NCBI GenBank assembly: GCA_041661265.1
Contig: JBAZUT010000002.1
Location: 12,316 to 76,315, forward strand
Origin: Minisyncoccota bacterium
Lineage (GTDB): Bacteria > Patescibacteriota > Minisyncoccia > JAHIHE01 > JAGLIN01
Direction: 5' to 3'
DNA length: 64,000 bases
In this document: piece after piece, positions 1,094-49,841 of the stretch
Numbering within the stretch: position 1 is the stretch's first letter
Layout: every line of letters starts with the position of its first letter
Notes under the pieces: model-generated
What the model saw: only the letters and a program-made list of their open reading frames with translations
What the model was told of the DNA's origin: nothing
The model's database searches: none
Position numbers and translations under genes: made by a program

Positions 1094-2824
1094 TTATTGA
1101 GATATATCAAGATATAATATATCGCATGATTTTCTGCCGCAATTTTCTTTGCACTTGGGAACAAGCAGATCTTTTGACATTCCGGTTTCACATGCATTTT
1201 CACAATAATCAGCTTGCTTTTCACAATCTTTCTCCTGTCTTTCTTGATATTGTTTCGCATAGTTTTCAATGTCATCGGAATGTTTCATCAAAGCCATTTC
1301 CGCTTTCATTTTTGAATAATTGAACGATCTCCAATCATTGTGTTTGTTTGCGTCTTCGATCAATTTTACGATCGGCCTATATTCACATTCGGATTTGCCA
1401 TAAGGCGGATATTTGCAGATGTGATTGAAATTAAAATTATATCTTCCATATAGGCTTATGGCGATTTCCTGCTTTGCCTCCTCCTTTGCAGCTGAGTCGA
1501 ATATCTTCACGATCTCAGGGATCGCATCTTGCGATAATGAAGTGATATAATTATAATCGACTTCTTTGCCCAGATCCAATCTCGCCACATTTGTTTTTGC
1601 GATAAACGAATCGGGATTGAGGATGTTGATAAACAGCCACAACCCTGCGGTTATCCAAAACATGCTATGATAAACAAACGCGCGCTTTTTTTCGAAAAAT
1701 ACCCTGGCGAGGAAGACTAGAAAAAGACATAAAATCCAAAACAGAAACATGATGACGATAAACCTCGGAAACGTCAGGCCATACCCGTCGACATAAAGTG
1801 CAAAACGCCTATATGCAGAAAATATGATTATCAGAATTTCAGAAACTATGACGGTCTCGGAGATCTTGAAGACCTTGATCTGCTTTGCGCTTTCCCTCTT
1901 CGCCGATCTTTCCAATGCATAGATCATCAAAAAGGAAACGGCCGAAACCAGAACGAGCTCGAAAAAACCTTTTCTTGCATAACTGGAATATGTGATCGTT
2001 TCGGTCAATCCCCAGACATAATCCCTGCCTCCGAAAAGATAAAAGAACTGGAAAATGATAAAAGCCAGAAAAAGCGCCTCCACAAGCGTCAGCACTGTCA
2101 GAGATTCAATAAAGCCCAGAGTCCTGTTTTCTTTTTCCTCCGCAGACAAGCTCTCGCTTTTTTCACCTGTGGCTATTCTCGCAAATACTCCTGCGAAAAA
2201 ACACGCTGCGACAAAAACAATAAGCAAGTGGAGAATTGACGTCAGATCAAGATCCACCCGTCCTATTTTCGACATATATGCCTGGATCACCGCATCAGAA
2301 GAATAAAGCAGCCATCCCAATATGACGAGGAACGGGATTGCGATCACGATGCCGCGAAAAATCCCAAAAAAACGGTTCGATCCGCGTTTGTTCTCTTTGT
2401 TCATGAATAGGAAATTCTTGGCAACATATTTTTCCGCTGCAACAAACGATCCCAGGATAGAAAACAACGGAAACAAAATATAATCCAATAATTTGAAATT
2501 ACTGAACCCGCTTTTGAAAAATATCGCAAACAGCAGAGAAAAGAGATAAAGAACTGCGGCAACATCAAAAAGAATCAAAAATCCGCTCAATCTCGAAATT
2601 ATTGCGAAAGAAAACAGTATAATAAAGCTTACGATCAGTATCCGGTTCATTTCCGGCTTTATCTTGAATTCGAAAACCAGGACCAACAAGGAAAAGATCA
2701 CTGCCAGATTGAAAATAAAGAATGCTATCCCGCTCGTTTTTTTAAATAACAGATAATCTGTGAGAATCCCCAAAGCTAAAGCAAGGATCGCGATGAGAAC
2801 AGCTTTGTATTTTTCGCTTGGCAT
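1094..2824 (-). CDS. Polytopic integral membrane protein (576 aa) with C-terminal Cys-rich soluble domain; function unknown
   Basis: Long ORF with many hydrophobic helices in the N-terminal 400 aa. The C-terminal ~120 aa is cysteine-rich (CKYPPYGKSECEY...CEKQADYCENACETG...CKENCGRKSC). Confidence 0.6.
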   Translation of the reverse strand: MPSEKYKAVLIAILALALGILTDYLLFKKTSGIAFFIFNLAVIFSLLVLVFEFKIKPEMNRILIVSFIILFSFAIISRLSGFLILFDVAAVLYLFSLLFAIFFKSGFSNFKLLDYILFPLFSILGSFVAAEKYVAKNFLFMNKENKRGSNRFFGIFRGIVIAIPFLVILGWLLYSSDAVIQAYMSKIGRVDLDLTSILHLLIVFVAACFFAGVFARIATGEKSESLSAEEKENRTLGFIESLTVLTLVEALFLAFIIFQFFYLFGGRDYVWGLTETITYSSYARKGFFELVLVSAVSFLMIYALERSAKRESAKQIKVFKISETVIVSEILIIIFSAYRRFALYVDGYGLTFPRFIVIMFLFWILCLFLVFLARVFFEKKRAFVYHSMFWITAGLWLFINILNPDSFIAKTNVARLDLGKEVDYNYITSLSQDAIPEIVKIFDSAAKEEAKQEIAISLYGRYNFNFNHICKYPPYGKSECEYRPIVKLIEDANKHNDWRSFNYSKMKAEMALMKHSDDIENYAKQYQERQEKDCEKQADYCENACETGMSKDLLVPKCKENCGRKSCDILYLDISQ

Positions 2825-2940
2825 ATGATTATCGTTATAAGTTAAACCCGTGTATTACATTCTAGCACAAGACGCACATTTCTCAAGTAAGTTGCCGCTG
2901 ACAGCCCGCCTCGATCTCTGCGTCATATGGTCATCAGCAT

Positions 2941-2975
2941 AAAAACACCCTATCCGTGGACAGGGTGTTTTTATA
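2941..2975 (-). terminator. Rho-independent terminator downstream of rpsG (bidirectional hairpin with flanking A- and T-runs)
   Basis: aaaaaCACCCTatccgtggacAGGGTGttttt lies 18 bp after the rpsG stop. A GC-rich stem is followed by a T-run on the minus strand. Confidence 0.6.
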
Positions 2976-2992
2976 ATATTCCGAAATTGATA

Positions 2993-3460
2993 TTATGCAA
3001 AGTGTGCAAATGCTCTGTTCGCTTCGGCCATCTTCTGCACATCGTCTCTTTTCTTCATTGCAGAACCTGTGCCGTTCATGATCTCAAGCATTTCTTCGGC
3101 GATCTTTTTTGCCATAGGCTTTCCTTTTCTTGCATCGGCCGCGGTCACGATCCATCTGAATGCGAGCTGGATCCTTCTGTCTCCCCTGACTTCCATCGGA
3201 ACCTGATATGTTGCGCCTCCGATCCTTTTCGATTTCACTTCAAGTATCGGAGCGACTTTGTTGATCGCGCTCTCAAATGTCTCAAGGGGTTCTTTTTTCG
3301 TCTTTTCCTTGATCGCTTCAAGGCATCCATAGACCACCCTTGTGGCAATGCTCTTTTTGCCTTCTTTGGTGATATAGTTGATGAGCCTGGAGACCAGCAT
3401 GCTGTTATATTTTGAATCAGGCCTTATGCCTCTGTCTATTCTTTTTTTTCTTCGTCCCAT
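2993..3460 (-). CDS. rpsG: 30S ribosomal protein S7
   Basis: 155-aa ORF with the typical S7 sequence (MGRRKKRIDRGIRPDSKYNS...VPMEVRGDRR...). It follows rpsL as in the str operon. Confidence 0.95.
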   Translation of the reverse strand: MGRRKKRIDRGIRPDSKYNSMLVSRLINYITKEGKKSIATRVVYGCLEAIKEKTKKEPLETFESAINKVAPILEVKSKRIGGATYQVPMEVRGDRRIQLAFRWIVTAADARKGKPMAKKIAEEMLEIMNGTGSAMKKRDDVQKMAEANRAFAHFA

Positions 3461-3490
3461 AGTTTTTAAAGTTTAGAAATTGATTTTAAA

Positions 3491-3910
3491 TTATTGTTTG
3501 GGCTTCTTCATGCCGTACTTGCTTCTTTCCTGTCTTCTTCCTTCAACGCCGGTCGCATCCAGAACGCCTCGGACGATGTGATATCTCACGCCCGGAAGAT
3601 CTTTCACTCTTCCGCCCCTGATCACAACCACAGAGTGTTCCTGGAGGGTGTGTCCGATTCCCGGAATGTAGGCGGTAACCTCGACGCCATTCGTAAGCTT
3701 AACCCTTGCGATCTTTCGGAGGGCCGAATTCGGTTTCTTCGGGGTCATTGTTCCAACCTTCACGCAAACGCCTCGTTTGAAAGGATTGCCTTTCTTGCTG
3801 ATCGAAGGTTTGTTCTGTATATAATTAAAATTCTTCTGTAGCGCCGGAGTCTTTGATTTTCTGCGCACTTTCTTCCTCGGATGCCTAATCAATTGTTGTA
3901 TTGTTGACAT
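3491..3910 (-). CDS. rpsL: 30S ribosomal protein S12
   Basis: 139-aa ORF with the hallmark S12 sequence (...[58 protein letters not shown]...). Confidence 0.95.
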
Positions 3911-5836: not shown

Positions 5837-6039
5837 CCAAAACCAAGCCAAAAAAACTGTATAATAAAATATAATTTGAATAGTATAGGGATTGCCACGG
5901 TTCTACTGAGCATCGCAATACCCGAAATCGCTACTATTTCATCGGGAACTAATTATGATCAGTGAACGCTTATAATCCCTTATGTATATTATATCACGCT
6001 TTCCGGTTTATTATTAATATCGATATCCACCGGCAATTC

Positions 6040-6185
6040 CTCTCTTGCCCTCCCCACGTATGCGGGGAGAGGGGCAAGGCGTGCGTCAATTTGCATTGAA
6101 TCTGTAGGGGCTGAAAATTTTCAGCTCCTATATATAGATTCCCCTCTTGAGAGGGGTGGGGGGTGGGGGGTGTGTGAATTATATA
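6040..6185. repeat. Cluster of GC-rich palindromes (REP-like), immediately 3' of the IS200/RayT-like transposase gene
   Basis: The palindromes include cccctctccccgcatacgtggggagggc, gctgaaaattttcagc and tcccctcttgagagggg followed by gggggtgggggg-tgtgtg. The last motif recurs at 16928-16966 and, interrupted, at 15488-15510. Confidence 0.55.
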
Positions 6186-6301
6186 TATCAGACAATTACA
6201 TATATCACTATCATAATTCATATTATCATAGTGCTCGAATTGTCTTACCTCAAAATAAAAAGAGGAATAATTATCTTTTAAAACGGGGTAAAGTCTTAAC
6301 A

Positions 6302-7237
6302 TTACACATTCCTGCAATAGTGTTCGATCTTCTCTAGCAATCTTTTAATATCCTTATCTTTTTGAGCCTCTTTGTTTAATCTACTAACCATCACGGCAAC
6401 AGCAGAGTAAGAAGGGCTTCCCAGAATCTCCCCTATCTCCTTAAGTCTTAGAGATGAATAACGCTTAAGCGCATAGGCAGTAAGTTTCTTCCTCATTTTT
6501 GTGTCCTGCGTAAGTTTTTCAAGATAATATTGCAATTCATTAAGTGAGAGCTGCTTTTGCGCTTTGGCAAGGCTTGGAATCTCGTGGTCTTTCTTTCCTC
6601 TAAGATAAGTCTCTTGGATATGGGAAATAAATTTGGAAGTTCCTAGGATAAATCCCTGGTAAGATTCTTTTTCCGGTGTCCACTCCTGGGCTAGGCCCTG
6701 CAGAGTAAAATGCTTAAATGATTTAATGGCCTTGGCTGAAGATTTATCAAATTGGGATAAAAGCCATTTGTTGTTTAAAAATTCAGGAACCTTCGCCTTC
6801 TTAATAAAGGACGCATAACTGGACCATCGATAACTTTCAGGCTTTTCCACTATTTTAGCCCTGACTGGATTTAGATGGATATATCTGGAAAGCTCCAAAG
6901 AGTAGCTATCCTTATCAACCACAACGGCTTTATACCGCCCCTGCATTAAGGGGCCCGCTCTATGATATCTATGATTGAAGGTTTGTGTATAAATACCATT
7001 TATTTGCCTCATGATCTTTGAAAGATTTGCGTAGGGGGTTTCCGCATACAAATGATAATGGTTAGGCATGAGGCAATAGCTATGGACAATTAAGCCATAT
7101 TTTAGATGCATTTGATCCAACAGGGAAAGAAAATACTGATAATCTTTTGGAGATTTAAAAATTTCCCGACGTTCCAGTCCTCGGTTGATTATGTGATAAA
7201 ATGCTCCTGGATATTCTATTCTAAGTGGTCTTGACAT
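6302..7237 (-). CDS. IS200/IS605-family HUH (Y1) transposase, RayT-like, with extended C-terminal HTH-like domain (311 aa)
   Basis: HUH motif MPNHYHLY and the conserved N-terminal YHIINRG are present. The protein is about twice the length of canonical IS200 TnpA. Its C-terminus (LKEIGEILGSPSYSAVAVMVSRL) resembles a DnaA-C/sigma-like HTH. Confidence 0.75.
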   Translation of the reverse strand: MSRPLRIEYPGAFYHIINRGLERREIFKSPKDYQYFLSLLDQMHLKYGLIVHSYCLMPNHYHLYAETPYANLSKIMRQINGIYTQTFNHRYHRAGPLMQGRYKAVVVDKDSYSLELSRYIHLNPVRAKIVEKPESYRWSSYASFIKKAKVPEFLNNKWLLSQFDKSSAKAIKSFKHFTLQGLAQEWTPEKESYQGFILGTSKFISHIQETYLRGKKDHEIPSLAKAQKQLSLNELQYYLEKLTQDTKMRKKLTAYALKRYSSLRLKEIGEILGSPSYSAVAVMVSRLNKEAQKDKDIKRLLEKIEHYCRNV

Positions 7238-7329
7238 ATTTCAATCTTAACAAATATCTTGTCGAATGTTAAGACTTGACCCCGTGAGTACTATTTTCTA
7301 CAGAGCATACCTGACACCTTTTCTTTCGC

Positions 7330-7382
7330 CTGAAACGGACAAAAGATTCCCATTGTCATCATAAGCATAATTTGCTGAACCG
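7330..7382. repeat. ~53-bp fragment nearly identical to an internal YD-repeat-coding segment of the rhs gene (9110-9165)
   Basis: cctgaaAcggAcaaaagattcccattgtcatcataagcAtaatttgctgaacc matches the intragenic sequence at 9110-9165 with 3 mismatches. Confidence 0.65.
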
Positions 7383-7499: not shown

Positions 7500-7931
7500 T
7501 TATTTAGAACACAAATATTTCGCATTCACTTCTTCCAAATCTTTAAGTAATTGGTCAAAGTTTATATCTAACTTTTTCTTTTCTAATTTTTTTCTGACAT
7601 CAAGAACAGCCTGTTTTGTAGTGTCGGCCAAAAGCTGTTTTTTCTGCTGATCCGACAAAGCAAGAAAATCTTCAGCCTTAACCCTAACGACCACACCGAT
7701 ATCGTTATTTTTTTTTGAATAATTTAAAACTTCTGGTTTAATTTCCTCATATTTACGAAATTTTCCAGAAATCCTATACCTAATGAGCAAAAGCTCTAAT
7801 CCCTTGCCATAATGCTTATTTCTTATATATTTTTTAATATATATATTTTTATATTCATCTATATACTTATCAAATATATTTCCAATTTCTGGACCCCATG
7901 TTTCAATAAAATATCCGATCATATTTAGCAA
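7500..7931 (-). CDS. Putative immunity protein for the upstream RHS C-terminal toxin tip (143 aa)
   Basis: Small ORF starting 9 bp after the rhs stop on the same strand, the canonical toxin-immunity position. The assignment rests on position only and no family was recognised. Confidence 0.5.
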   Translation of the reverse strand: MLNMIGYFIETWGPEIGNIFDKYIDEYKNIYIKKYIRNKHYGKGLELLLIRYRISGKFRKYEEIKPEVLNYSKKNNDIGVVVRVKAEDFLALSDQQKKQLLADTTKQAVLDVRKKLEKKKLDINFDQLLKDLEEVNAKYLCSK

Positions 7932-7939
7932 ATTAATAT

Positions 7940-10900
7940 TTAATGATTATTTTTTTGAAGTGGACCTCTTGGATTGTTTTTAATTATACTTGCCTCTTTT
8001 TGATACATTTCACGCCTACTTCCACTCCCTAAAACCTTCATGCTCTTATCTTCCATAAATTTATTCGTATATCTTTTTAAGGGATCTTCTTTTGAAGTTA
8101 TTCCGTACTTTAAATGACTCCCTTTGTTATCAAACAGCTCATACAGAAAAGTATTTTTAGGACTATCCAAACTGTTCCCATGGATCTTTTTAGTTTGACC
8201 TACAAATGTTTTTCCTATGTCATCCATTTTGCCAATAATTGGTTTTGAGATATTTGCAACCTCATCAACATTTTTCACCGCCTTCAATCCCAAAATCGGT
8301 ACGCCAGGAATTGCTGTTCCAGCAGCATCCATGGCAATATCACTGCGAAGATTATCCATACCTTGCACACCTTGAGATAGTTGAGCATCTCCTGCATTGA
8401 TTAACCTTTGATTATTCATTGCAGTACCGATACCGATGTTTACCGCACCTGCAGCTGCAACCATCATTCTTTCGCCATATCGGACAGTATCATAATAAGT
8501 CGTTGCCGCATCAATCACTGTGTCCCAGAATTGTCCGCTTTCATCGATATTTACGAGAGGATTATTCCTTGCGTAAGCATAGCTGTTCCAGCTTTGAGGA
8601 TCAACAAGCTGAATTTTGAGTTGAGATAAATTCAAGAATGCTGGATCTTGTGACACAAACTTCCCAATCCTCCCATTGTAATACCTCGCATTCATGTAAG
8701 AAAGCCCGGTGTCGGTATCATATTCATGGCCTGCATACTTTCGTTGTTCGTTGAATGAGCTTGCTTTCTCATCCAGACGTATATCGCCATAGGGATAATA
8801 ATCCATCGATTCTTCCACTGTTCCGCTGCTGTTTGTGACAATGTTTGAGCCTGTGAGATGATCCGTGGAAACTGAATAGACTTGTGCGCTTGCTCCTGTC
8901 CCTTTAATTGTAGCAACAAGCTGTCCTCCTGCAAAGACATGCTTGGTCGGCGTGCCGTCGGTGTTGTAATACCTGCTCGGATAAACCGTTGTGCTAGAGC
9001 CTGTTGCATATTTCACTCTCTGACCGGAAGCATCATATCCATACGTTACAGTCGTGGCTCCAACCACCGATTGCGTTATGCGGTTGCTATAGTCCCAAGT
9101 GTTGGTTAATCCGCCTGAAGCGGTCAAAAGATTCCCATTGTCATCATAAGCGTAATTTGCTGAACCCATGGAAGTAACAGCGTGAGGATTCGCTTTCCCC
9201 GTTTGAGAATAAGCATAATTTCCTTGGTCGGATTTGTTCGTGATGTTTCCAATGGCGTCATAAACATAGGTTTCCGTATAATTCTGGCTGCCGGAAGCCC
9301 CCGGTGAATTATATAAATCAAGAATCTCCTGGGAAGACAGGGTCCGGTTATAGATCCGCACCTCGTCCAGTTTCCCGTCGATATTGTTTCCGCTTCCGGG
9401 AACGATCGCGCCCATTCTCATCGGAGCGGTATTGTCATAAGTTGAAGTGGCATTGCCTCCGTAAGTTCCGGAAACTTCCTGGCCGTTTACATACAAACTT
9501 ACGTCGTTCAGGCCGCGCACGACTGCGGCGATGTGATACCAGGAACCGGTTGAAATCACTCCTCCGACGGAATCTTTTCCGGCAAGATTTGTACCATCGG
9601 CAAAAAATCCTCTCAGCGCGCCGTTGGGAAGGATCATCATGGCATAGGCCATCGTTTCCCAGCTTGTGTTCCACTTGCCAATAATGCCCCTGTTGCCGCT
9701 TAACGAATCTGGATTCACCCAGGCGCTCATGGTAATGGGTAGTGAAGGACTGAGGCTCAAAGAGTCGGAAACAATGATCTCATCATCTCCTCCGTCCAGA
9801 TCAAGCGCGTTGCCGGAAATCCCCGAAACCCAATTGGCATTCGTCATTCCGCCGGAAAGAGTGCCACTGTTTCCGTTTCCACTGGAATCACTCGCGACCT
9901 GGCCGGAACTTTCGTTGAAATTCCAGTAACCGGCGATACCGACATCACTTTGCGTGACACCTGTGGCGGTTGCAGAAAGCAATCGATTCAAGGAGTCATA
10001 GATGTAATCCGTGGTTTTCTTGGAATTCGTGGCGGAATTGTCGACAATTCTGGTAATGTTACCGTTCGCGTCATAAGCATACGCAAGGTCTTGTCCATGA
10101 CCTCCGCCTGCGATCGTCGTGACTTTCGAACTTAAGCGATAGAGCTTCATTGCATCATAGGTGTTCGTCGTGGAAACGCCGTTAGCATAAGTTTGAGTTG
10201 TGACTTTGCCCAATGGCGAATAATCGTAATTTGTTACCAGATCGGTGAAATTCGAGGACACAGATCCGCTCGGTTTCTGATAGAGCGCGAGAATTTCCGC
10301 ATCGGTCAGGACTTTGTTATATACCCTCGCTTCGTCTATTTTTCCATTGAAATAATCCTGGTAGTAGTTGCTCGTTCCGACAAGGGTTTTCACGGCCGGA
10401 TTATTTAAAGTGACATTATATATTCTGGATTGGATCAATACGCCGTTTGCATACAGCTTGTGTTCCTTGGTCGCATCATTGAATACGCCGACAAGGTGAG
10501 TCCAGGTTGATGTTGATAAAACATCATACGCCACAACATAATTCCCTCCACTTCCTCCATTAATAAAGAACGCGACATCATTACTGCCTTTCCACATGCT
10601 GTATTGGATTCCGGAAGGAGAATACCGGCTGATGACGTGTCCGCCGGATGTCAGCTCTGCGGGATTGATCCAAACCGAGACCGTTATCCCCTGGCCTGCG
10701 GGAACGTTTTCCATAATTCCCATATCAATCCTTTCATTTATTCCGTCAAAATTTAGAGCTGTTCCATTCACACCCTGCACCCAGTCGGAGCTCTCCATGT
10801 TTTCCAATGTCCCATTGTGGCCGCTTCCACTTGAATCACCCGCGGAGATTCCTGTTCCTTCATTGAAATTCCAAAAGCCGACGAGATCCGTGTTTGAAGG

Positions 10901-13900
10901 AAGTCCGGAACTTCCACTCTCCTTTGTTGAAACTTTTTCCAAAAGTCCGGCGGAATTATACTCATACTTGGTTTGTGAGCTGTCAGGATTTGTGAGGATA
11001 GTCTCGTTGCCCTGCCGGTCATATTCATACTCTGTGCGATAATTCGTCGAATCTATGGTTTTGGTTTCGGTCTTGATAAGTCCCAAAGGATCATATTCTT
11101 TCGTTTCACTGGAAGCGGAATTTATTACGGAGCACAATCGCCCCTTCCCGCCAATGCATGTGTCATACACATATGTCACTTCCATTCCGGTTTGCCCGGT
11201 GTAGTCTTCGGAAGTTTGGCGATTCAATGCGTCATAAACGTAATTGACGACCTGACCTTTCGGATCGGTCTTTGAGATCAGGTTGCCATTAGCGTCATAG
11301 GAATAACCATATGTTCCGAATGTCGGATCTGCCGGTGCGTGCAGATCTTCGGCGGAAAGCCTTCCTCCAAATGCGTCATAGGTGAAATTCCTGACGTTTC
11401 CAAGAGCATCAGTGATATTGAGCAGATTTCCTAATTTATCATAGGAATAATTGGTGGCATAGACATTGGCGCCATTATGTTCATCGACTCTAATCAGATT
11501 TCCATAAGCGTCTTTATAGAGCGTCTTTAGTGTTCCTTTGGCATCAGTCGTAGTGACTTTCCAATCGTCATAGGCACTCGTGATCGTTCCCACCGCATTC
11601 GTGGTGGAAGTCATTCTTTCAAGAGGATCGTAAACATAGGTCGAATAAAGCGCATTATCCGTTGTGGCAGAAGTTCTGGCCAAGCCAGTTGAAAAATACA
11701 GCAAGGATTCTTTTTGCAGAAGTCCTCTGTTGTTATATACCAAATCGCTTACCGAATACATATTGGCGCTTTCCGCTTCTTTTCTGGTTTGAATAACTCT
11801 TCCCAAACCGTCGAAATAGGAATAGGAATCAATACCATTGGTGGCGTCCAGATAATCCGTTTTTTTAATGCTTATTGTATTTGGCGTATCGGTATAAATA
11901 TATGAAGATTTCGTAACAAGCGTTGCAGGCACAGCTAGATCCGGTTGTTTTTCCTCGAGTACCCTGTCCAATCCGTCATATACAGTTTGGAAAACATACC
12001 CGTTCTGATCCGTCACTTGCTTGGGCTTTCCGAGGGAATAATCATGGGTGTATTGCGTGATCTGATTCAACGGATTCGTCACGCTCTCGGGATAGAGATT
12101 GTATGAATCATAGATATAACTTGTTGCGTTGTCCCTGGCGTCAGTTTCGGAAGTCACAAGGCCATAACTGTTATATGATTTTTGGGTGTTGATATAATTC
12201 GTACCGCTCTTCCACTTTTCTTCTTTGGTTTGATTTCCCTTGTTCACGCTTCCAAGGGCAAGAGTATCATAGTAATATTTCGACTCACTGACTTTATTCG
12301 CGCTTTGATCTGTTGTTATGTTCTGAGATGGAAGGCCAAAAATATTCAAGCTTGCGTTTGAAGCGTAGGAAATTGTTGTCATGAGCTTGTCCGTTCCCAC
12401 ATCCGTGAAAGTCCCGTCATCCGACCCCGTCACTTCTCCCCACTGCGTTTTGGTTGTGAGATTGCCGTTGATATCATCATAAGAAAATGTTTCCGCTTTA
12501 TCCCTATGGCTGGCATTGCCGTCAAAACTCGAATCGATTTTTTGCGTAAGCTTCACGAAATTCCTTCCTCCGCCGAGGTCATAGCTTTCCCATTTATTTA
12601 TCGTTTTGGAATAGATATTTCCGGCACTATCAGAAACTTCAGACCTATATGATCTTCCTATTTTGGAATAATTATCCAAATACTCACCTTGCGCTGAATT
12701 GGTCGCATCGCCCTGATGAAAATGCGTTGAGATTTTGTTTCCTGCGCCGTCAGTCTCTACAACTTTCGAAAAGCCTGAGAACTTGCGATCGAATGGATTT
12801 GCAGAGTCAAAGTAATATTTCCCGCCTTCATAGGAATATGTTTTTGAGAATGAATTTCCCAATCCGTCGTTGTTCGTGATCTGATAAACCGTATCGACAT
12901 TCAATGGAAGATTGGGATTAAGAAGATTATTGCCTGCGTCTTTGTATTGCGCGGATGGTTTATATGCAACATCCGTCAATCCGCCTTTAACATTAATAAT
13001 TCTTTTTGCAATTCCAATTTTTCCAATAGTATTATTCAGATAGATCATTGAAGAATAAGTTTCGGGGCTAGAAGTTTCTCTTTTTCCATAAATAAGATCC
13101 GAAAGTCCGTCACCATTCAGATCGGCGATGCGAGTGCCCGTGTCGAGATAATTCCTTCCATCGCTAAAATCCAACGACACCCAGATCGGCTTTTCCACCC
13201 ATCCGCTTCCGCTATTCATAAAGACTCTATGCAAGCCGTAATAGTCTAGAGACTGCATTAGATCGTTATAGCCGTCTCCATTAACATCGGCAACTCTCAC
13301 ACCGAGATCATCGACTCTCCCCCCATAGTTTTCGCCGTAAAAAAGAGTTGGCGGTGTATAATTAGTATCAATAGACCATCCCCCGTTTCCGTCATTGATA
13401 AATGCCCTTTGGTAAACGGTTGGAGAACTATAAAAAGAATAAGATTGCATGATGTCCTCCAAGCCGTCTCCGTTTATATCGACAAATACAACCCCCTGTT
13501 TCGTGTCAATCGGAAGAGTCCAATTCGTATCTTGAGACCAGCCTGAAGCACTATTCAGATAAATCATTGAGGAATAAGTCTCTGGATCGGATGTTTCTCT
13601 TTTTCCATATACAAGATCGGAAAGTCCGTCGCCGTTTAAATCGGCGATTCGGGAACCGGTATCTGAGCCGGTTTTGCCGTCGCTGAATTCAAGCGGAACC
13701 CAACCAGCCTGCACCATCCATCCGTTGCCGTTATTAATATATATTGTGCGCGGGCCATTATTGCCCATCGATTGAATAAGATCCATGAGTCCGTCGCCGT
13801 TCACATCAATCGGACGAACGCCTTGATCTTTAACGGCACCAAACTCATCATGAAAAAATGGAATGGGTGTCAGATTATTATTTTGAACCCAGCCGCCATT

Positions 13901-15301
13901 GCTATTATTAATAAATGCCCTTTTGAGCGTTCCCGTATTACTGCTGTAATAAGATTGCAAAATATCGGGAAAACCGTCGCCGTTTAAATCGGCAATTATT
14001 ATTCCTTCCCGAGTATCGACCGGAAGTGACCAAGAATAATCTCTGGTCCAGCCGTCAGTTCCGGTTCGATATTCGAAACTCGTTGCAGGAAGCGTCACGA
14101 CATTGCTACTTTCGTCCTGCCCTGATTCAGTAATTGAATAAAGCGTTGACCTTACAGTATTATCGCCCGTTGTATAAGCTAAAGCATATTTTTTTACCCA
14201 TATCCCGTTCGCTTTCGCCTGGATCTCATTAATCCTGTAGCTGGTTTTAACTTGGAATCCTGAAACGTAGCTTGTATTGGCATCGCTTCTTGTTTCCCTT
14301 ATGAATTCCACAGTGAAAATTCCGTCCGTTGCACCGTTTCCGGTGTAAATTATTCTTGAAGGATAAATTTGCCCCGCATCTTTGAAATATTCATAACGAA
14401 TGTAGTTATCATTCAGATCCCGCACCTCTTCGAGCATCCATTTGTAGACTTTCGCTGAATCATTGGGATTATCTTGTCTGGAGTTTGCATTCAATCCGAA
14501 CTTATATTTTGTTCCGGATTTATCGGTTACAGTCCAAGTGTTATTTGAAAACTCATACTTTAGGAAATCTCCATTTTCAATCTTCGCACTGTATTGCGTT
14601 CCACTTATGAAAACAAGTTCTCCTGAAATAGATGAGCTAAAATAGTTTTCCGTGTAAAGTTTATCCGTACCTTTTTTGTTGATTCTTTCAATATATGAGA
14701 TGTCGACACTCCATCCATAGCCCATTATATTATCATTACTTGCGTTCTGGCTATTATAGGAAAGGCCTAAGCTAGGCTGTATTCCATTTCTTCCAGGAGG
14801 CGTTTCAATGGAGTAGCTATATACAAGAGCCCCTGTTGCGGCATCTGATTCCGGAGTACTTACCCTTGTCTTTGAATTATTGTTATAATTTGAAGCGCCA
14901 TTATCATTCCCAGGATCGGACGGGTTGGAAGCGCTTTGAGCTCCAGTAAGACCGTCACCCGGCTTTTCCTTGTCTTTTGTTTTATCGGAATTATTATCAT
15001 TCGTTTTGTCTTTTGATTGAGCATTTTCAGGACTTGCAAGATCAATGATTTTAGAATCCTCCGAGAAAGAAGCCGTTTCGCCAGCACTTTCGGAACCGAA
15101 AAATGCCTCCACGGGGACACTATTTTCTATTGGATCGGCGGACGTATTATCCAATGGCACAGATTCAGAGACCGCTTGCGCGTTTGCATGAATCGATAAA
15201 ACTGGCGCAAAAGAAGAGAAGATAAACAAAAAAGCCAACGAAATAACCGCTGACTTCTTTGTCCAACTTCTTAGGCTTTTCTGCAATTTGTTGGAACGCA
15301 T
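7940..15301 (-). CDS. Giant RHS/YD-repeat protein (2453 aa): signal peptide, SpvB-like domain, FG-GAP/VCBS repeats, RHS repeats with two LamG-like insertions, RHS core, variable C-terminal toxin tip
   Basis: - N-terminal signal peptide.
- SpvB-like segment GIQPSLGLSYNSQ...GYGWSVDISY.
- Repeated DxNGDGxxDL FG-GAP motifs.
- Dozens of YD repeats (YxYDxxGNL).
- Two concanavalin/LamG-like segments (WNFNEGTG...RVYN, WNFNESSG...RIYN).
- Core end RYYNGRIGKFVSQDP...NSYAYARNNPLVNID.
- ~280 aa of unrelated C-terminal sequence. Confidence 0.9.
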   Translation of the reverse strand: MRSNKLQKSLRSWTKKSAVISLAFLFIFSSFAPVLSIHANAQAVSESVPLDNTSADPIENSVPVEAFFGSESAGETASFSEDSKIIDLASPENAQSKDKTNDNNSDKTKDKEKPGDGLTGAQSASNPSDPGNDNGASNYNNNSKTRVSTPESDAATGALVYSYSIETPPGRNGIQPSLGLSYNSQNASNDNIMGYGWSVDISYIERINKKGTDKLYTENYFSSSISGELVFISGTQYSAKIENGDFLKYEFSNNTWTVTDKSGTKYKFGLNANSRQDNPNDSAKVYKWMLEEVRDLNDNYIRYEYFKDAGQIYPSRIIYTGNGATDGIFTVEFIRETRSDANTSYVSGFQVKTSYRINEIQAKANGIWVKKYALAYTTGDNTVRSTLYSITESGQDESSNVVTLPATSFEYRTGTDGWTRDYSWSLPVDTREGIIIADLNGDGFPDILQSYYSSNTGTLKRAFINNSNGGWVQNNNLTPIPFFHDEFGAVKDQGVRPIDVNGDGLMDLIQSMGNNGPRTIYINNGNGWMVQAGWVPLEFSDGKTGSDTGSRIADLNGDGLSDLVYGKRETSDPETYSSMIYLNSASGWSQDTNWTLPIDTKQGVVFVDINGDGLEDIMQSYSFYSSPTVYQRAFINDGNGGWSIDTNYTPPTLFYGENYGGRVDDLGVRVADVNGDGYNDLMQSLDYYGLHRVFMNSGSGWVEKPIWVSLDFSDGRNYLDTGTRIADLNGDGLSDLIYGKRETSSPETYSSMIYLNNTIGKIGIAKRIINVKGGLTDVAYKPSAQYKDAGNNLLNPNLPLNVDTVYQITNNDGLGNSFSKTYSYEGGKYYFDSANPFDRKFSGFSKVVETDGAGNKISTHFHQGDATNSAQGEYLDNYSKIGRSYRSEVSDSAGNIYSKTINKWESYDLGGGRNFVKLTQKIDSSFDGNASHRDKAETFSYDDINGNLTTKTQWGEVTGSDDGTFTDVGTDKLMTTISYASNASLNIFGLPSQNITTDQSANKVSESKYYYDTLALGSVNKGNQTKEEKWKSGTNYINTQKSYNSYGLVTSETDARDNATSYIYDSYNLYPESVTNPLNQITQYTHDYSLGKPKQVTDQNGYVFQTVYDGLDRVLEEKQPDLAVPATLVTKSSYIYTDTPNTISIKKTDYLDATNGIDSYSYFDGLGRVIQTRKEAESANMYSVSDLVYNNRGLLQKESLLYFSTGLARTSATTDNALYSTYVYDPLERMTSTTNAVGTITSAYDDWKVTTTDAKGTLKTLYKDAYGNLIRVDEHNGANVYATNYSYDKLGNLLNITDALGNVRNFTYDAFGGRLSAEDLHAPADPTFGTYGYSYDANGNLISKTDPKGQVVNYVYDALNRQTSEDYTGQTGMEVTYVYDTCIGGKGRLCSVINSASSETKEYDPLGLIKTETKTIDSTNYRTEYEYDRQGNETILTNPDSSQTKYEYNSAGLLEKVSTKESGSSGLPSNTDLVGFWNFNEGTGISAGDSSGSGHNGTLENMESSDWVQGVNGTALNFDGINERIDMGIMENVPAGQGITVSVWINPAELTSGGHVISRYSPSGIQYSMWKGSNDVAFFINGGSGGNYVVAYDVLSTSTWTHLVGVFNDATKEHKLYANGVLIQSRIYNVTLNNPAVKTLVGTSNYYQDYFNGKIDEARVYNKVLTDAEILALYQKPSGSVSSNFTDLVTNYDYSPLGKVTTQTYANGVSTTNTYDAMKLYRLSSKVTTIAGGGHGQDLAYAYDANGNITRIVDNSATNSKKTTDYIYDSLNRLLSATATGVTQSDVGIAGYWNFNESSGQVASDSSGNGNSGTLSGGMTNANWVSGISGNALDLDGGDDEIIVSDSLSLSPSLPITMSAWVNPDSLSGNRGIIGKWNTSWETMAYAMMILPNGALRGFFADGTNLAGKDSVGGVISTGSWYHIAAVVRGLNDVSLYVNGQEVSGTYGGNATSTYDNTAPMRMGAIVPGSGNNIDGKLDEVRIYNRTLSSQEILDLYNSPGASGSQNYTETYVYDAIGNITNKSDQGNYAYSQTGKANPHAVTSMGSANYAYDDNGNLLTASGGLTNTWDYSNRITQSVVGATTVTYGYDASGQRVKYATGSSTTVYPSRYYNTDGTPTKHVFAGGQLVATIKGTGASAQVYSVSTDHLTGSNIVTNSSGTVEESMDYYPYGDIRLDEKASSFNEQRKYAGHEYDTDTGLSYMNARYYNGRIGKFVSQDPAFLNLSQLKIQLVDPQSWNSYAYARNNPLVNIDESGQFWDTVIDAATTYYDTVRYGERMMVAAAGAVNIGIGTAMNNQRLINAGDAQLSQGVQGMDNLRSDIAMDAAGTAIPGVPILGLKAVKNVDEVANISKPIIGKMDDIGKTFVGQTKKIHGNSLDSPKNTFLYELFDNKGSHLKYGITSKEDPLKRYTNKFMEDKSMKVLGSGSRREMYQKEASIIKNNPRGPLQKNNH

Positions 15302-15516: not shown

Positions 15517-16741
15517 GCACGGCTGTATCACCCTATCAATTAACCCCATTTTGTGCTATTCTTAAGGTAATATTTATCAATTAAATAATATTACTCTATG
15601 AAAAACATAAAATCTAAAAAGAAAAATTTGTATGAACTATTGAATCAATTAGATGATTATCGAAGAAAACAAGGAAGGATGCACGAATTGAGATTTGCGC
15701 TTGTCTTAGCGATTATGTCCATCATGAGCGGTTTCTCCAGCTTGCGAGCAATGGGTGATTTTATCAAAAAAAATAAGAAGGAACTGATAAAAATATTTAA
15801 ACCGAAAAAAGACAGACTGCCGACATACTTAACGATTAATCGTGTTTTGCAAAATGTTGATTTTAATAAATTTACTCAAATCTTTCAAAAATGGGCTATC
15901 GGTTATGTAAAAATAGAAGATAACGAATGGGTATCGATTGATGGAAAAGCTATTGGCGGAACCGCAGACTGCTTGCAAGACAACAAACAAAAATTTATCA
16001 GTTTAGTGTCAGTATTTTTAAGCAAGAAAAAACAAGTGCTTCAAGCCGGTAAAATCGATAACGGGAAAGAAAGCGAGATACCGAAAGTCAGAGAGTTAAT
16101 TAAAATTTTAGATCTAGAAGGAGCTGTACTCACTATGGATGCTTTGCATTGCCAGAAAGAAACCGTGCAGGCAATCATCAAAAGCAATAATAATTATTGC
16201 ATAGGCGTAAAAGGAAATCAAAAGAAATTATACGAACAATTAAAAAAAACACAAAAACCGGCAAACCGATAAACACCGACAGAATAAAGGAAAAAAGCCG
16301 AAACAGAATGGAATTAAGGGTGGCGAATGTTTACAATAATCTTAACGGAATTAATTCAGGATGGATAGGATTGCAAAGCATTGTTAAAGTGAAAAGAACG
16401 ATCAGGTTTACAGGAGGGAAAAACAAAGATAAGGTTTTTAAAGAAATAGCTTATTTCATTTCCAGTCTGCCGTCTAACACCAAAGCTGGAACATTTAATC
16501 AAGGAATAAGGAGTCATTGGTCGATTGAAAATTCACTGCACTACATCAAAGATAAAACTTTCAGAGAAGACAGCTCCCGCATCAGAACAAAAAACGCTCC
16601 GGCAAATCTTTCACTTATTAGAAATATAGCGATTAATATTTTTAGAGAAAACAACTACTCGAATATCGCTCAAGCGATCAGGTTAATTTCAAATGATATA
16701 TCTAAAATGTTTGAGCTGATAGAAGGGTGACACAGCCGTGC
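15517..16741 (+). mobile_element. ISAs1-family insertion sequence (~1.2 kb) with 17-bp terminal inverted repeats GCACGGCTGT(A/G)TCACCC
   Basis: The inverted repeats lie at 15517-15533 and 16725-16741. The internal DDE transposase has ISAs1/H-repeat-associated-protein N- and C-terminal signatures. The element appears to interrupt a copy of the cacacacccc...cccctct-agagggga palindromic element. Confidence 0.7.
15598..16730 (+). pseudogene. ISAs1-family transposase split into two overlapping ORFs (15598..16272 and 16197..16730) by a frameshift at an A8 tract
   Basis: The N-terminal part (LDDYRRKQGRMHEL...SGFSSLRAMGDF...PTYLTINRVL) and the C-terminal part (HWSIENSLHYIKDKTFREDSSRIRTKNAPANLSLIRNIAINIF) match the ISAs1 transposase organisation. 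The frames switch around ttaaaaaaaacac (16245-16257). Confidence 0.7.
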
Positions 16742-16966
16742 CCTCTAGAGGGGATTTACATTGTATGTCATTCCTGCCCTGATATACATCAGGATAAACT
16801 CCAGCAGGGATCCAGAATGACAAAATACATGGATACCCGCGTTCGCGAGTATGACAAGATACATGGATTCCGTGTCCATCACAAAACCACAGAGCACTTT
16901 CAAGCATTATTGAGGTTCAACCTCGATAAAAACACACCCCTCATTCCCCTCTCAAGAGGGGACTTT
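16742..16966. repeat. Block of short palindromic repeats 3' of the IS
   Basis: - ccctctagaggg
- gtcattcctgcc-[cctgatatacatcagg]-ataaactccagcagggatccagaatgac
- the 28-mer ggatacccgcgttcgcgagtatgacaag (also at 19825-19852)
- acacacccctcattcccctctcaagagggga. Confidence 0.65.
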
Positions 16967-17570
16967 TAGCCTCTGCTGTTTTTTTCTTTTTCCAGAAATA
17001 TACGGCCAAAAAGACCAGCGAAAGGACAATCAGAACATCCAATCCGTTGAAAACTGCGATGATGTTCTTCCAATGCGGACCGAGCCAGAATCCGACATAG
17101 GCAAGAGCAAAACACCATGGGATCGATCCCACAAAACTGAAAATAATCAATTTCTTCACGTCATATTTTCCCATTCCCGCAGGAAGCGATATGAAAGTCC
17201 TGACAACAGGAAGAAGCCTTGAGAAAAACACCGCCCTGTCTCCATATTTGCGAAACCACTCCTCCGCGATCTCGAGATGATGATGATTCATGAAAATATA
17301 TTTTCCATATCTGTCTATGAACGGCCGGCCTCCCCACAGCCCGACATAATAGGAAACAACCGAGCCCGCCATACACCCCGCCGCACCCACAATGCTTATT
17401 AAAACCAGATCGAATATCCCCTGATAGGCAAGATATCCCGAAAAAGTCATGATCACTTCGCTCGGGATCGGAATCGCTGCACTTTCCAGGGCCATGAGAA
17501 TAAAGACTCCCGCATATCCTACAGCTGAAATAAAAGCTTCTACATAAGTTGAAACGAATTCGGCGATCAT
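16941..17570 (-). CDS. DedA/SNARE-associated (VTT domain) membrane protein
   Basis: 209 aa with a typical DedA core (MALESAAIPIPSEVIMTFSGYLA...GRPFIDRYGKY...FFSRLLPVVRTFISLPAGM). Confidence 0.8.
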   Translation of the reverse strand: MIAEFVSTYVEAFISAVGYAGVFILMALESAAIPIPSEVIMTFSGYLAYQGIFDLVLISIVGAAGCMAGSVVSYYVGLWGGRPFIDRYGKYIFMNHHHLEIAEEWFRKYGDRAVFFSRLLPVVRTFISLPAGMGKYDVKKLIIFSFVGSIPWCFALAYVGFWLGPHWKNIIAVFNGLDVLIVLSLVFLAVYFWKKKKTAEAKSPLLRGE

Positions 17571-17770: not shown

Positions 17771-18058
17771 TTATTCCAGAGGCAAATCTCTAAACTCAGG
17801 ATTCATATTTTTAATCAAATTTATTTTCTTCTTTCTTGAGCCGCCTTTAATCTGCTTTTCTCTTGCGATGGCGTCATTTATATTATTATAGATCTCATAA
17901 TAAACCAGCTTAGTAATATTGTATCTACTCGTAAATCCCTTGATCGTTTTATTCTTATGTTCATAGACTCTTCTGGCCAGGTTGTTGGTAACACCCGTAT
18001 ATAGAACTGTATTAAATTTATTCGTCATTATATAAAGATAATATTGATTTGTTTTCAT
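17771..18058 (-). CDS. GIY-YIG nuclease-domain mini-protein (96 aa)
   Basis: MKTNQYYLYIMTNKFNTVLYTGVTNNLARRVYEHK matches the GIY-YIG fold (YxxYIM...YTGxTxNLxxRxxEH). The ORF-track start at 18229 reads through a 36-bp repeat (VIAIRPGRRSNL) and is rejected. The start was re-placed at the internal ATG at 18058. Confidence 0.75.
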   Translation of the reverse strand: MKTNQYYLYIMTNKFNTVLYTGVTNNLARRVYEHKNKTIKGFTSRYNITKLVYYEIYNNINDAIAREKQIKGGSRKKKINLIKNMNPEFRDLPLE

Positions 18059-18073
18059 AAAATAACAACTGAA

Positions 18074-18109
18074 GAGATTGCTTCTCCGCCCTGGGCGGAT
18101 CGCAATGAC
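18074..18109. repeat. 36-bp hairpin repeat GAGATTGCTTCTCCGCCCTGGGCGGATCGCAATGAC (copy 2)
   Basis: Identical to the copy at 18281..18316. One mismatch versus 15336..15371. Confidence 0.8.
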
Positions 18110-18280
18110 AGAGACGTGATAATCCGTATCACATGGAATAGATTGTCCACTTTCGACGGATCTGCCGGAGACATGACTTCCCTGCGTGCTGCCTCGCAAT
18201 GACAGAGTCTCGTCTGAGAATTGGCTCATTCAAAATTTAATAGAAATTAGAAATTGAAAATTAGAAATTTAAATAAAGTC

Positions 18281-41809: not shown

Positions 41810-42685
41810 CTAGCCGGATATCCACGTCATTCGAGGCCTTCGCGCGCCCTGTTCGTTTATTTTCCCATTATCTGACCCTCCGTTTTGAGTCAAAAATATT
41901 TGTCTTCCGCCTTTTTGTTTGCCTATTCCATATCCGTAGTGCGCCGGTTCAAAGAGTTCACTCTCCAATCTTCCGGATATTGTCAGACCGATAAAGAGCC
42001 TTCCGTCGCTCCCGATATATTGAGCGATCCCACACCCCTCAGGAGCAATAATGTTCATGCCTTTTGGCCCGGCCTTATCGCCCGTCGTCATTATCGTACA
42101 GCCTGCTTCCAGAAGCAGATCTTCAAAGCTTTTTGCTTCCTCTTTGCCCGACTCGTCACCGGCTGCGTCATTGTTCAATGCAGTTTCTTTACCACTGAGA
42201 CAGATTTCTCTTCCATTCATGAATATCCGGGTCTTTTCTTTGTCCGATCCATGGATCTCATTTTCATTTGAACCGGTTTCACCTTCGTCGTTTTCGCATT
42301 CTGTGCCCTTCTTTGTCCCCTTTTCTATCTCTTCCATTTTCCTTTCAGCCTTCTCAAGACTTGGTTTTTCTTGCCTTGAAAGCAGAACCTCCAAAACAGG
42401 CCACATGATCGAATCGATCTTGGGATATCCGTCAAGCTTGATGCTCCGGTCATTGTCCTCGCATCTTCCTGTGGCAAAGAGATATATCACCTTTCCCAGT
42501 TCATGCAATCCCTCTTCGAGGCTTGTTGCTGTTTCTCTGGATCCGAGATCGATCTCTTCAGTCAAAATATCCTGCTTCTGGAATATATAGTATTTTCCCT
42601 CTTCGGCTGCTTTTCCATACATCAAGAAAAGCCTCTCAAACGACTTTAGTAGCTCCTCGTCTTTCTCTTTTCCGATCTTTATCAT
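41810..42685 (-). CDS. Paralog-array member 10 (291 aa), type-B N-domain. C-terminus truncated or degenerate and lacks the family C-terminal NWYL(R/K)V domain
   Basis: The N-terminal 110 aa and leader are identical at DNA level to member 6 (45998..47272). It has an EGC(T) middle module. The sequence ends abruptly with GARRPRMTWISG. Confidence 0.7.
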   Translation of the reverse strand: MIKIGKEKDEELLKSFERLFLMYGKAAEEGKYYIFQKQDILTEEIDLGSRETATSLEEGLHELGKVIYLFATGRCEDNDRSIKLDGYPKIDSIMWPVLEVLLSRQEKPSLEKAERKMEEIEKGTKKGTECENDEGETGSNENEIHGSDKEKTRIFMNGREICLSGKETALNNDAAGDESGKEEAKSFEDLLLEAGCTIMTTGDKAGPKGMNIIAPEGCGIAQYIGSDGRLFIGLTISGRLESELFEPAHYGYGIGKQKGGRQIFLTQNGGSDNGKINEQGARRPRMTWISG

Positions 42686-42845
42686 ATCTTCGCTTCCTCC
42701 TTTTTCTTTGTGAGCATGATCAATACATTGATTTCAAGGTGCTTTCCTTTGAAGTCCCTCTCTGCCGTGCTGTTTATCTTAAACAGTATGGCGGAAAGAG
42801 AGGCAATGCCGGCTATTGTCGTTCAATAAGCGGGATTGCCGATGT
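42686..42845 (-). promoter_or_regulatory. Conserved array leader (copy 9): GGCAAT-loop-ATTGCC hairpin, CCTCTCTTTCCGCC...GGCAGAGAGGG hairpin, AAAGGAGGA RBS
   Basis: ~165-bp element repeated 9 times, immediately 5' of array genes. Confidence 0.55.
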
Positions 42846-43835: not shown

Positions 43836-44003
43836 ATCTTCGCTTCCTCCTTTTTCCTTGTAAGCATGATCAATACATTGATTTCAAGGTGCTTTCCTTT
43901 GAAGTCCCTCTCTGCCATGCTGTTTATCTTAAACAGTATGGCGGAAAGAGAGGCAATCGGTCATCGTTTTTTTTCGATGGAATAATTGCCAAACATTTTA
44001 TTC
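43836..44003 (-). promoter_or_regulatory. Conserved array leader (copy 8); loop variant ggcaatcggtcatcgttttttttcgatggaataattgcc
   Basis: Identical to the leader at 52156..52323. Confidence 0.55.
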
Positions 44004-44861: not shown

Positions 44862-45016
44862 TGACTCCTCCTTCTTTTCAGATAAATATTCGCTATTTTG
44901 ATTTTAAGGTACTTTCCTATGAGTCCCTCGCTGTCATACTGTTCAGTCAAACAGTATGACGGAAAGAGAGGCAATTCCGTAAGTCTACTTTGCAACAAAC
45001 GGAATTGCCGATTTTT
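44862..45016 (-). promoter_or_regulatory. Conserved array leader (copy 7); perfect hairpin ggcaattccgt...acggaattgcc
   Basis: Seen in the sequence. Confidence 0.55.
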
Positions 45017-45823: not shown

Positions 45824-45997
45824 ATCTTCACTTCCTCCTTTTTCCTTGTAAGCATGATCAATACATTGATTTCAAGGTGCTTTCCTTTGAAGTCCCTCGC
45901 TGTCATGCTGTTTATCTTAAACAGCATGGCGGAAAGAGAGGCAATTCCGGCTATTGTCTTTCAATAAGCGGGATTGCCAAATATTATTTTCACTGGA
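45824..45997 (-). promoter_or_regulatory. Conserved array leader (copy 6)
   Basis: Seen in the sequence. Confidence 0.55.
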
Positions 45998-49823: not shown

Positions 49824-49841
49824 TATCCTGCCTCCTCAAAT

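Follow-up and report, generated by a model that had tools for sequence, protein, structure and literature searches.

The 64-kb stretch of DNA analysed here, referred to below as the window, lies on contig JBAZUT010000002.1 and carries on its minus strand a large rhs gene that is followed by a small gene in the position of an immunity gene (Table 1). The rhs gene is a single uninterrupted open reading frame (ORF) encoding a protein of 2453 amino acids (aa), and its public records derive from a metagenome-assembled genome (MAG) of Candidatus Paceibacterota. The evidence described below makes it probable that the locus encodes a Sec-exported Rhs polymorphic toxin, built as a fused TcB/TcC "BC cocoon" with a GIY-YIG (URI-fold) nuclease tip, together with a cognate Imm44-like immunity protein.

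The domains of the rhs product were assigned by Pfam and NCBIfam searches of the 2453-aa protein, and tandem copies were detected by BLAST of the protein against itself. The initial annotation, which had been made from the letters of the window, described a TcB/TcC-like fused Rhs protein of this length with SpvB and FG-GAP domains, and this description was borne out by the Pfam and NCBIfam matches, with domain E-values spanning 1e-15 to 1e-51 across the protein. The FG-GAP block is an internal tandem duplication, in which aa 421-587 and aa 591-760 share 57% identity (self-BLAST E 8.7e-65). RHS_repeat (PF05593) matched seven stretches of the protein (E 1.6e-35), and no TcdB_toxin_midC domain was detected in the Pfam and NCBIfam scans of the protein. 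The two LamG modules that had been noticed within the YD shell were recovered with PF13385. YD motifs and RHS repeats were found before, between and after both LamG domains, with the RHS repeat resuming at aa ~1694 after the first insertion; because YD motifs flank and separate them, both LamG modules are true insertions in the shell. The two LamG-plus-repeat units share 28% identity with each other (self-BLAST E 4.6e-16).

The N-terminus of the rhs product, as read from the sequence and its hydropathy without a predictor, passes from a basic stretch through a hydrophobic core to HANA before QA, which is a Sec-type arrangement. This readable signal peptide supports the earlier suggestion that the protein is probably secreted. 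The NCBI model of the rhs protein (2404 aa) begins at Leu50 and leaves out window positions 15154-15301 (-), so that the predicted signal peptide is omitted. The JGI start (ATG 15301, 2453 aa), which keeps the signal peptide, is more plausible than the NCBI start at Leu50.

Table 1. Features of the rhs locus and its flanks, with positions counted in the window.
Feature	Protein positions (aa)	Window position	Strand	Basis and remarks
rhs gene	1-2453	7940..15301	(-)	2453 aa; JGI "RHS repeat-associated protein"; NCBI MFA6096302.1 "LamG-like jellyroll fold domain-containing protein"
Predicted Sec signal peptide	1-41	15179..15301	(-)	MRSNKLQKSLRSWTKK, hydrophobic core, then HANA before QA
SpvB / TcB N-terminal domain	154-241 (best stretch)	14579..14842	(-)	PF03534, E 6.6e-15; segment alone E 4.5e-17
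FG-GAP beta-propeller region	~421-760	13022..14041	(-)	Pfam FG-GAP and FG-GAP_3, five stretches, E ~1e-16
TcdB_toxin_midN	720-858	12728..13144	(-)	PF12256, E 5.9e-21
YD/RHS-repeat shell, broken by two LamG modules	~900-2167	8801..12604	(-)	PF05593 RHS_repeat, TIGR01643, YD motif positions
LamG insertion 1	~1470-1675 (Pfam core 1532-1670)	10277..10894	(-)	PF13385 Laminin_G_3, E 6.8e-26
LamG insertion 2	~1786-1998 (Pfam core 1836-1993)	9308..9946	(-)	PF13385 Laminin_G_3, E 6.3e-27
Rhs-associated core (predicted aspartyl autoprotease plug)	2168-2257	8531..8800	(-)	TIGR03696; R2206, D2219 (SQDP), D2253 (NIDESGQ)
Pre-toxin linker	2258-2372	8186..8530	(-)	Two Gly/Ala-rich hydrophobic stretches (hydropathy)
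Toxin domain, predicted GIY-YIG/URI fold, Tox-URI2-like	2373-2453	7943..8185	(-)	IHGNS...LYEL...LKYGITS...RY...DK...GSRREM..KE...NP
Putative immunity gene, Imm44-like		7503..7922	(-)	140 aa from ATG 7922 (143 aa if TTG 7931); 17 nt after the rhs stop codon
Apparent rhs scar, 55 nt		7327..7381	(-)	94.5% identity to rhs nt 9112-9166; encodes GSANYAYDDNGNLL
Y1/REP-associated tyrosine transposase-like gene		6302..7237	(-)	Pfam/NCBIfam; DnaA C-terminal-like helix-turn-helix; downstream flank
Broken insertion sequence		15598..16969	(+)	DDE_Tnp_1_assoc and DDE_Tnp_1 over three short ORFs; upstream flank

The end of the Rhs core had been called divergent, and this did not hold. The TIGR03696 model (Rhs_assc_core) aligned over its full length (1-76/76) at aa 2168-2257 with 65-71 bits, against a cut-off of 32.5. 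In the closest relatives the core reads ARYYN(G/S)xxG(R/K)F(I/V)SQDPxF...NNPLxxxDPxGx, and the window core has ARYYNGRIGKFVSQDPAF ... NNPLVNIDESGQF at the same positions. The DPAF segment is the norm of this core clade, and the sole change is DPxG to DESG (Pro to Glu), with the Asp and the Gly kept. The Pro is also absent in other carriers of the same toxin domain, which have IDKDG or YDLDG. R2206, D2219 and D2253 stand at the positions that form the aspartyl autoprotease in published work on TcC/Rhs proteins, so that the window core retains all three of the predicted catalytic residues, one Arg and two Asp.

The tip was shorter than first proposed. The final ~280 aa had been taken as the tip, and 90 aa of these belong to the Rhs core; the tip proper comprises aa 2258-2453 (196 aa), consisting of a 115-aa linker and an 81-aa toxin domain. 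The 196-aa tip had no match in Pfam (including E<=10), NCBIfam, PADLOC or PDB sequences. A word-indexed homologue search with the whole tip returned five proteins only, and the tip thereby appeared near-unique. Two of these proteins (P0003 and P0004) share just the linker segment, followed by unrelated C-termini, and the other three (P0001, P0002 and P0005) share just the last ~80 aa, which in P0005 stand behind a PT-HINT domain. The second half of the linker (MNNQRL...GVPILGLKAV) is common to two metagenome contigs bearing different toxins. A known pre-toxin domain such as PT-TG was considered for the linker and rejected, as neither the window linker nor the linkers of its relatives had a Pfam match.

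The toxin family was then defined by an exhaustive search of 1.84 billion representative proteins with a four-domain profile, with clusters counted at 50% identity. The search gave 997 toxin-domain clusters at E<=1e-3, of which 412 also passed E<=1e-10; the toxin domain is therefore common and not near-unique. It is essentially always the last domain of its protein, followed by a median of 6.5 aa, and is carried by RHS, PT-HINT and LysM proteins and also by short orphan cassettes in toxin arrays. No Pfam domain covered the toxin region in any of nine long carriers (9/9). The 120 database relatives listed were all unnamed or annotated as "hypothetical protein"; PF15653 was present on 0/120 and PT-HINT (PF07591) on five.

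An alignment of 46 members (A3), numbered along a 94-aa query segment whose first residue is aa 2359 (add 2358 for positions in the protein), revealed eight invariant residues, N17, Y28, L30, K39, G41, G68, R70 and E77, and the near-invariant residues H15, G16, S18, S21, R51, Y52 and K60. The published signature of the Tox-URI2 family, whose carriers are RHS and HINT proteins, consists of Y, KxG and [EQ] (Zhang et al. 2012, PMC3482391), and the invariant Y28, K39-x-G41 and E77 fit this signature. PF15653 (Tox-URI2) was also the family with the most member matches (9/46, best E 0.01). One toxin member aligned with PF15653 positions 2-39 at 13.8 bits (cut-off 20), and the family consensus aligned with positions 3-34 of PF01541 (GIY-YIG) at 14.6 bits (E 0.043, cut-off 22.6). 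These sub-threshold matches to PF15653 and PF01541 were all in the same register. Among the GIY-YIG residues, the first Tyr, the Arg and the Glu are present in the toxin, and the second Tyr is replaced by Lys.

The AlphaFold2 (AF2) model of the toxin domain, built from the 46-sequence alignment, had a predicted local distance difference test score (pLDDT) of 87.7, with 93-97 in the core, and a beta-beta-alpha-alpha-beta-alpha topology. In a Foldseek search against predicted viral structures, the named matches among the top 50 were overwhelmingly GIY-YIG, intron-associated or Seg-like homing endonucleases; the probabilities were mostly 0.9-1.00, the template modelling (TM) scores 0.43-0.60 and the best E 1.3e-3, and the first 24 query residues were disordered. 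Against the PDB, the only whole-domain matches were to the UvrC GIY-YIG domain (1yd6; TM 0.42-0.48, E 0.5 at best), none of them significant. Because the Foldseek matches were consistent despite their modest E-values, we conclude from the model that the tip is a predicted GIY-YIG/URI-fold nuclease that is nearest to Tox-URI2 but lies outside the current Pfam model. The initial annotation had found no toxin family that it could name for the tip. It remains correct that the tip is left unnamed by every curated resource searched (Pfam, NCBIfam and PDB sequences), but the tip can be classified by its GIY-YIG/URI fold, its Tox-URI2-type signature and its Imm44-like neighbour, and no match to a non-toxin domain was found.

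The window also encodes an ordinary cellular GIY-YIG protein (PF01541, E 3e-15) at 17771-18229 (-), 2.5 kb upstream of rhs, which has no sequence relationship to the toxin. An hhalign comparison of the toxin with this protein placed Y / KxG / R onto GIY / YxG / R with a probability of only 4%.

The toxin domain is opened by an HGNS...SP motif (HGNS at aa 2374-2377; window 8040-8185 (-)). This motif lies outside the region that is aligned to the GIY-YIG and Tox-URI2 models and is a low-confidence coil in the AF2 model, and nothing relevant to it was found in the literature. An intein-like Asn-cleavage site between HGN and S was considered and rejected: the PT-HINT relatives have a junction of their own, between VHN and C, 2-5 aa upstream.

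The gene behind rhs had been described as a 143-aa gene in the immunity position. Its position and its linkage to the toxin were supported, but its length is more likely 140 aa, with the ATG at 7922 preferred over the TTG at 7931 as the start. The 140-aa form is identical to a database protein that is annotated only as hypothetical. Compared with Imm44 (PF15571), the protein scored 16.6 bits (E 0.0099, cut-off 25). It is Imm44-like and not a housekeeping protein; three database homologues with 57-66% identity (P0007-P0009) bear precomputed PF15571 labels. Imm44 is a listed partner of Tox-URI1, Tox-URI2 and Tox-ParBL1 (PMC3482391). According to its AF2 model, the immunity protein has an alpha+beta structure (beta-alpha-beta3-alpha3, pLDDT 74.5), for which a Foldseek search of the PDB gave no significant match.

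The genes next to the relatives of the toxin were consistent with a role of this protein in immunity. Each of the three homologues with 57-66% identity is encoded immediately downstream of a tip that carries this toxin domain, and in one case the tip is preceded by a canonical Rhs end, NNNPLKYTDPDGE. Behind the toxin homologue P0001 stands an immunity homologue with 38% identity. Taken together, the homologues with 38-66% identity occupy the position right after the toxin domain at four distinct loci besides the window (L001/L002, L006, L007/L008 and L009). The distant toxin relatives from Arthrobacter, Corallococcus, Streptosporangiaceae and locus L005 are each followed by a protein of 129-140 aa; these four proteins form one family (E 1e-11 to 1e-22), which hhalign linked to the window immunity family with a probability of 89% (E 2e-6). 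Toxin relatives were thus followed by immunity relatives in all of the distinct loci checked (8/8). This linkage appears to be stronger evidence for the immunity role than the Imm44 score.

A further observation concerns the orphan toxin P0001, which lies with its immunity gene at 1214-3645 (-) of L001 in JGI metagenome 3300057024 and is followed by two tandem genes of the phage-integrase family. Because these two integrase-family genes follow the pair, the locus suggests that the toxin-immunity cassette is able to travel with a recombinase module.

To place the Rhs core among its relatives, it was scanned together with the linker against one genome per species, which gave 30 related loci. The closest cores are on a contig labelled Methanoperedens (64% identity), in Doudnabacteria (58%) and in Saccharibacteria (51%), with further close cores in Nomurabacteria, Peregrinibacteria and Parcubacteria, so that the relatives are mostly ultra-small bacteria of the Candidate Phyla Radiation (CPR). 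A comparison of related rhs loci had been proposed as a check for alternative tips at the same core junction, and such tips were found: the similarity of the 30 loci ends at aa ~2257, and beyond this point the tips are unrelated. They include an alpha/beta-hydrolase-like tip and, on one core relative of CPR lineage, a Peptidase_M15 cell-wall hydrolase tip. The closest core (NZ_FZMP01000168.1, L012; match 6001-6624, ORF >2300 aa) is recorded under Candidatus Methanoperedens nitroreducens, and the Rhs core on this archaeal contig could be the result of a bacteria-to-archaea transfer or of a mis-binned contig.

A second point of divergence was observed at the end of the linker. P0003 and P0004 are encoded on two contigs of one metagenome, both of which open precisely with the shared linker. 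Over ~150 nt these contigs match the window at ~85% DNA identity, and beyond this the similarity is lost altogether; the genes downstream of the two tips also differ (DUF7660 and DUF2283). Since the core relatives diverge at aa ~2257 and P0003 and P0004 diverge at the linker end, the rhs gene is, as judged from these sequences, a gene with two exchange points, a classical one at the core end and another at the linker end. The G+C content falls from 0.443 in the gene body and 0.417 in the linker to 0.325 in the toxin domain and 0.29 in the immunity gene, and this atypical composition of the toxin and immunity genes agrees with an exchange point at the linker end. The tip and the immunity gene apparently form a horizontally exchanged cassette that is joined at the linker end.

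These results can be combined into a proposed mechanism. By analogy with published work on the family, the Rhs protein would be exported through Sec. As in the structural work on Tc and Rhs proteins, the SpvB domain, the FG-GAP propeller, midN and the YD repeats would fold into a closed shell that holds the C-terminal 196 aa unfolded inside, and the Rhs core would plug this shell and cleave itself at about G2256/Q2257 using R2206, D2219 and D2253. The steps that follow are more tentative. The two LamG jelly-rolls may project from the shell and bind glycans on the target surface, and this binding may stand in for that of the receptor-binding TcA, a partner that the window lacks. Passage of the freed tip across the target membrane might be aided by the Gly-rich hydrophobic linker. 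In the target, the 81-aa predicted nuclease may cut DNA by means of Y2386, K2397-x-G2399, R2409 and E2435, and the producer may be guarded by the co-transcribed 140-aa putative immunity protein. The targets might, speculatively, be sister strains or a host bacterium.

Several observations weigh against the reading of the locus as an exported Rhs toxin with a nuclease tip. No sequence match between the tip and a curated family reached statistical significance (Pfam at E<=10; relatives best E 0.01), and the Foldseek E-values were modest (best 1.3e-3 for the viral models and 0.5 for the PDB). A Lys stands in place of the second GIY-YIG Tyr, and the invariant HGNS with which the domain begins is without a counterpart in known GIY-YIG enzymes. 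The usual Pro of the last autoproteolysis motif is a Glu, with which cleavage is not guaranteed. The Imm44 score was below the cut-off (16.6 vs 25 bits), and the three labelled homologues gave no match in a direct scan. Finally, no delivery partner (TcA, type VI secretion system or type VII secretion system) was found in the window.

The best-surviving alternative concerns the target rather than the machine. The same machine could be aimed at the host bacterium of the Paceibacterota cell, for parasitic or predatory attack or for DNA scavenging instead of rivalry with its own kin, with immunity serving only for self-protection. CPR bacteria rely on host cells for nucleotides, and the delivery of a nuclease into the host would fit this dependence. 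The origin of the window from a Candidatus Paceibacterota MAG, the occurrence of the closest Rhs cores mostly in the other CPR lineages listed above, the Peptidase_M15 tip on one CPR relative and the possible binding of LamG modules to host surface glycans point in the same direction. However, the cassette structure, the tight linkage of immunity, the swapping of tips and the orphan arrays are features that classically mark rivalry among related strains (PMC3482391). Free-living Actinobacteria and Myxococcota also possess this toxin-immunity pair, and nothing in the sequence identifies a target. We regard an attack on the host as rather unlikely.

It was also considered that the GIY-YIG-like tip is not a DNase but an RNase or a non-catalytic binding module. 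The K39 in place of the YIG Tyr, a similarity to the GIY-YIG and Tox-URI2 sequences that stays sub-threshold and the invariant HGNS, which suggests a modified active site, would be in line with this. On the other hand, the KxG variant is a published hallmark of the Tox-URI2 nuclease clade (PMC3482391). The Y, R and E at the positions of the catalytic Tyr, the catalytic Arg and the metal-binding Glu of GIY-YIG enzymes are invariant or nearly so in 46 diverse members, and the presence of a dedicated immunity protein implies that the toxin acts inside cells. A tip of this other kind is considered improbable.

The TcB-TcC complexes of Photorhabdus and Yersinia are the structural prototypes of fused BC cocoons. 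Like these, the window protein has SpvB, an FG-GAP propeller, TcdB_toxin_midN, RHS repeats, an Rhs core and a variable tip; the Arg, Asp and Asp of the core are kept, and the tip varies among relatives. Unlike these, it has no TcA partner in the window and no detected midC, two LamG modules are inserted in its shell, and its last motif is DESG instead of DPxG. It also differs from the insecticidal Tc toxins, which have no immunity gene, in that an immunity gene adjoins rhs. WapA of Bacillus subtilis is a Sec-exported, wall-associated Rhs-type toxin of monoderm bacteria whose tips are tRNases. The window protein resembles WapA in its signal-peptide export without a dedicated injection apparatus, its YD repeats and its nuclease-type tip with an immunity gene, whereas WapA lacks SpvB, FG-GAP and midN and its tips are tRNases and not of the GIY-YIG type.

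In the published classification, Rhs/YD polymorphic toxins of the TcdB/TcaC class are fused TcB-TcC proteins (PMC3482391). The tip agrees with Tox-URI2 (PF15653) in its C-terminal place on RHS and PT-HINT proteins, its size of ~80 aa, its Y/KxG/E residues, its predicted GIY-YIG fold and its Imm44 partner. It departs from Tox-URI2 in the sub-threshold scores (no match of the window tip, best E 0.01 among relatives), in the additional invariant N-terminal HGNS...SP and in its C-terminal end, which is PGPLNxEPWAG in many members of the toxin family and NPRGPLQKNNH in the subclade of the window. The putative immunity protein is likewise similar to Imm44 (PF15571) in its length of ~140 aa, its predicted alpha+beta structure and its position right after a URI-type toxin; it differs in its score (16.6 vs 25 bits), in the lack of a solved or matching structure and in forming a subfamily of its own, to which a clade from Actinobacteria and Myxococcota is a distant sister. 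A Saccharibacteria genome has been reported to encode a giant secreted polymorphic toxin of the Rhs/YD type next to an immunity gene (Starr et al. 2018, PMC6031116). Likened by its description, that toxin is also a secreted Rhs/YD protein of a CPR bacterium, with ~2,500 aa, modules of carbohydrate-binding type and an adjoining immunity gene, but it has PA14 and galactose-binding domains (PMC6031116) where the window protein has LamG.

The class of Rhs toxins that combine a URI-fold tip with an Imm44 partner has already been described (PMC3482391), and the occurrence of giant Rhs toxins in CPR genomes is likewise on record (PMC6031116); the current understanding of the mechanism of Rhs toxins is unchallenged by the window locus. 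What is new here is modest, namely a fold assignment for a large toxin clade without a model, the HGNS motif, the joint at the linker end and the pairing with one immunity superfamily across phyla. With this assignment, a tip that is called hypothetical in public records receives the working name of URI/GIY-YIG nuclease, and about a thousand related clusters outside the Pfam and NCBIfam models, together with their immunity partners, can be named in the same way. The locus also indicates that full-size Rhs weapons whose tips can be swapped are retained in ultra-small CPR bacteria, a point that bears on competition among epibionts or on the exploitation of hosts.

A more far-reaching interpretation, which we consider doubtful, is that the tip represents a distinct, undescribed GIY-YIG toxin clade (HGNS-Y-KxG-R-E) of ~1,000 clusters at 50% identity in CPR, Actinobacteria, Myxococcota and possibly archaea. 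In this clade the HGNS arm may remodel the active site, with His/Asn replacing the lost second Tyr, and the toxin and a single immunity superfamily would have evolved together. In Paceibacterota and related CPR lineages the toxin would ride on a TcA-less, LamG-decorated Rhs cocoon, maybe for attack on the host bacterium. If this were true, the toxin would be a candidate effector of the epibiont lifestyle.

The neighbours of rhs in the window are insertion sequence (IS) or transposase genes and housekeeping genes. The ORFs at 15598-16969 (+) are a frameshifted or broken IS directly upstream of the rhs promoter region. On the other side, the 55-nt copy of rhs is placed between the immunity gene and the transposase-like gene, and its frame ends 12 codons on; this copy looks like the scar of an older, displaced rhs 3' end. 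Apart from it, six-frame scans with hidden Markov models detected no further toxin, immunity or orphan cassette in the window. No TcA-type partner was found in the 64-kb window, and no other ORF exceeds 659 aa. That the locus is a decaying island, in which the Pro-to-Glu change (DESGQ at the usual DPxG site) blocks self-cleavage and the toxin is never freed, is very improbable, for although the broken IS and the Y1 transposase-like gene flank rhs and an rhs scar lies downstream, the 7.4-kb ORF without a stop or frameshift argues for selection, the predicted catalytic Arg, both Asp and the conserved Gly are retained, the Pro is missing in other family members too (IDKDG, YDLDG), and the immunity gene is intact and tightly coupled.

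Two minor observations were made in the window. The product of the transposase-like gene at 6302-7237 (-) has 311 aa and combines an IS200/Y1 N-terminal domain with a C-terminal region like the DnaA DNA-binding domain, a fusion that is unusual for a REP-associated tyrosine transposase (RAYT). At 41810-53181 (-), ten evenly spaced ORFs of 268-460 aa lie on the same strand; the two that were scanned had no Pfam match (2/2), and the ten ORFs may represent a family of paralogues or an array of surface proteins.

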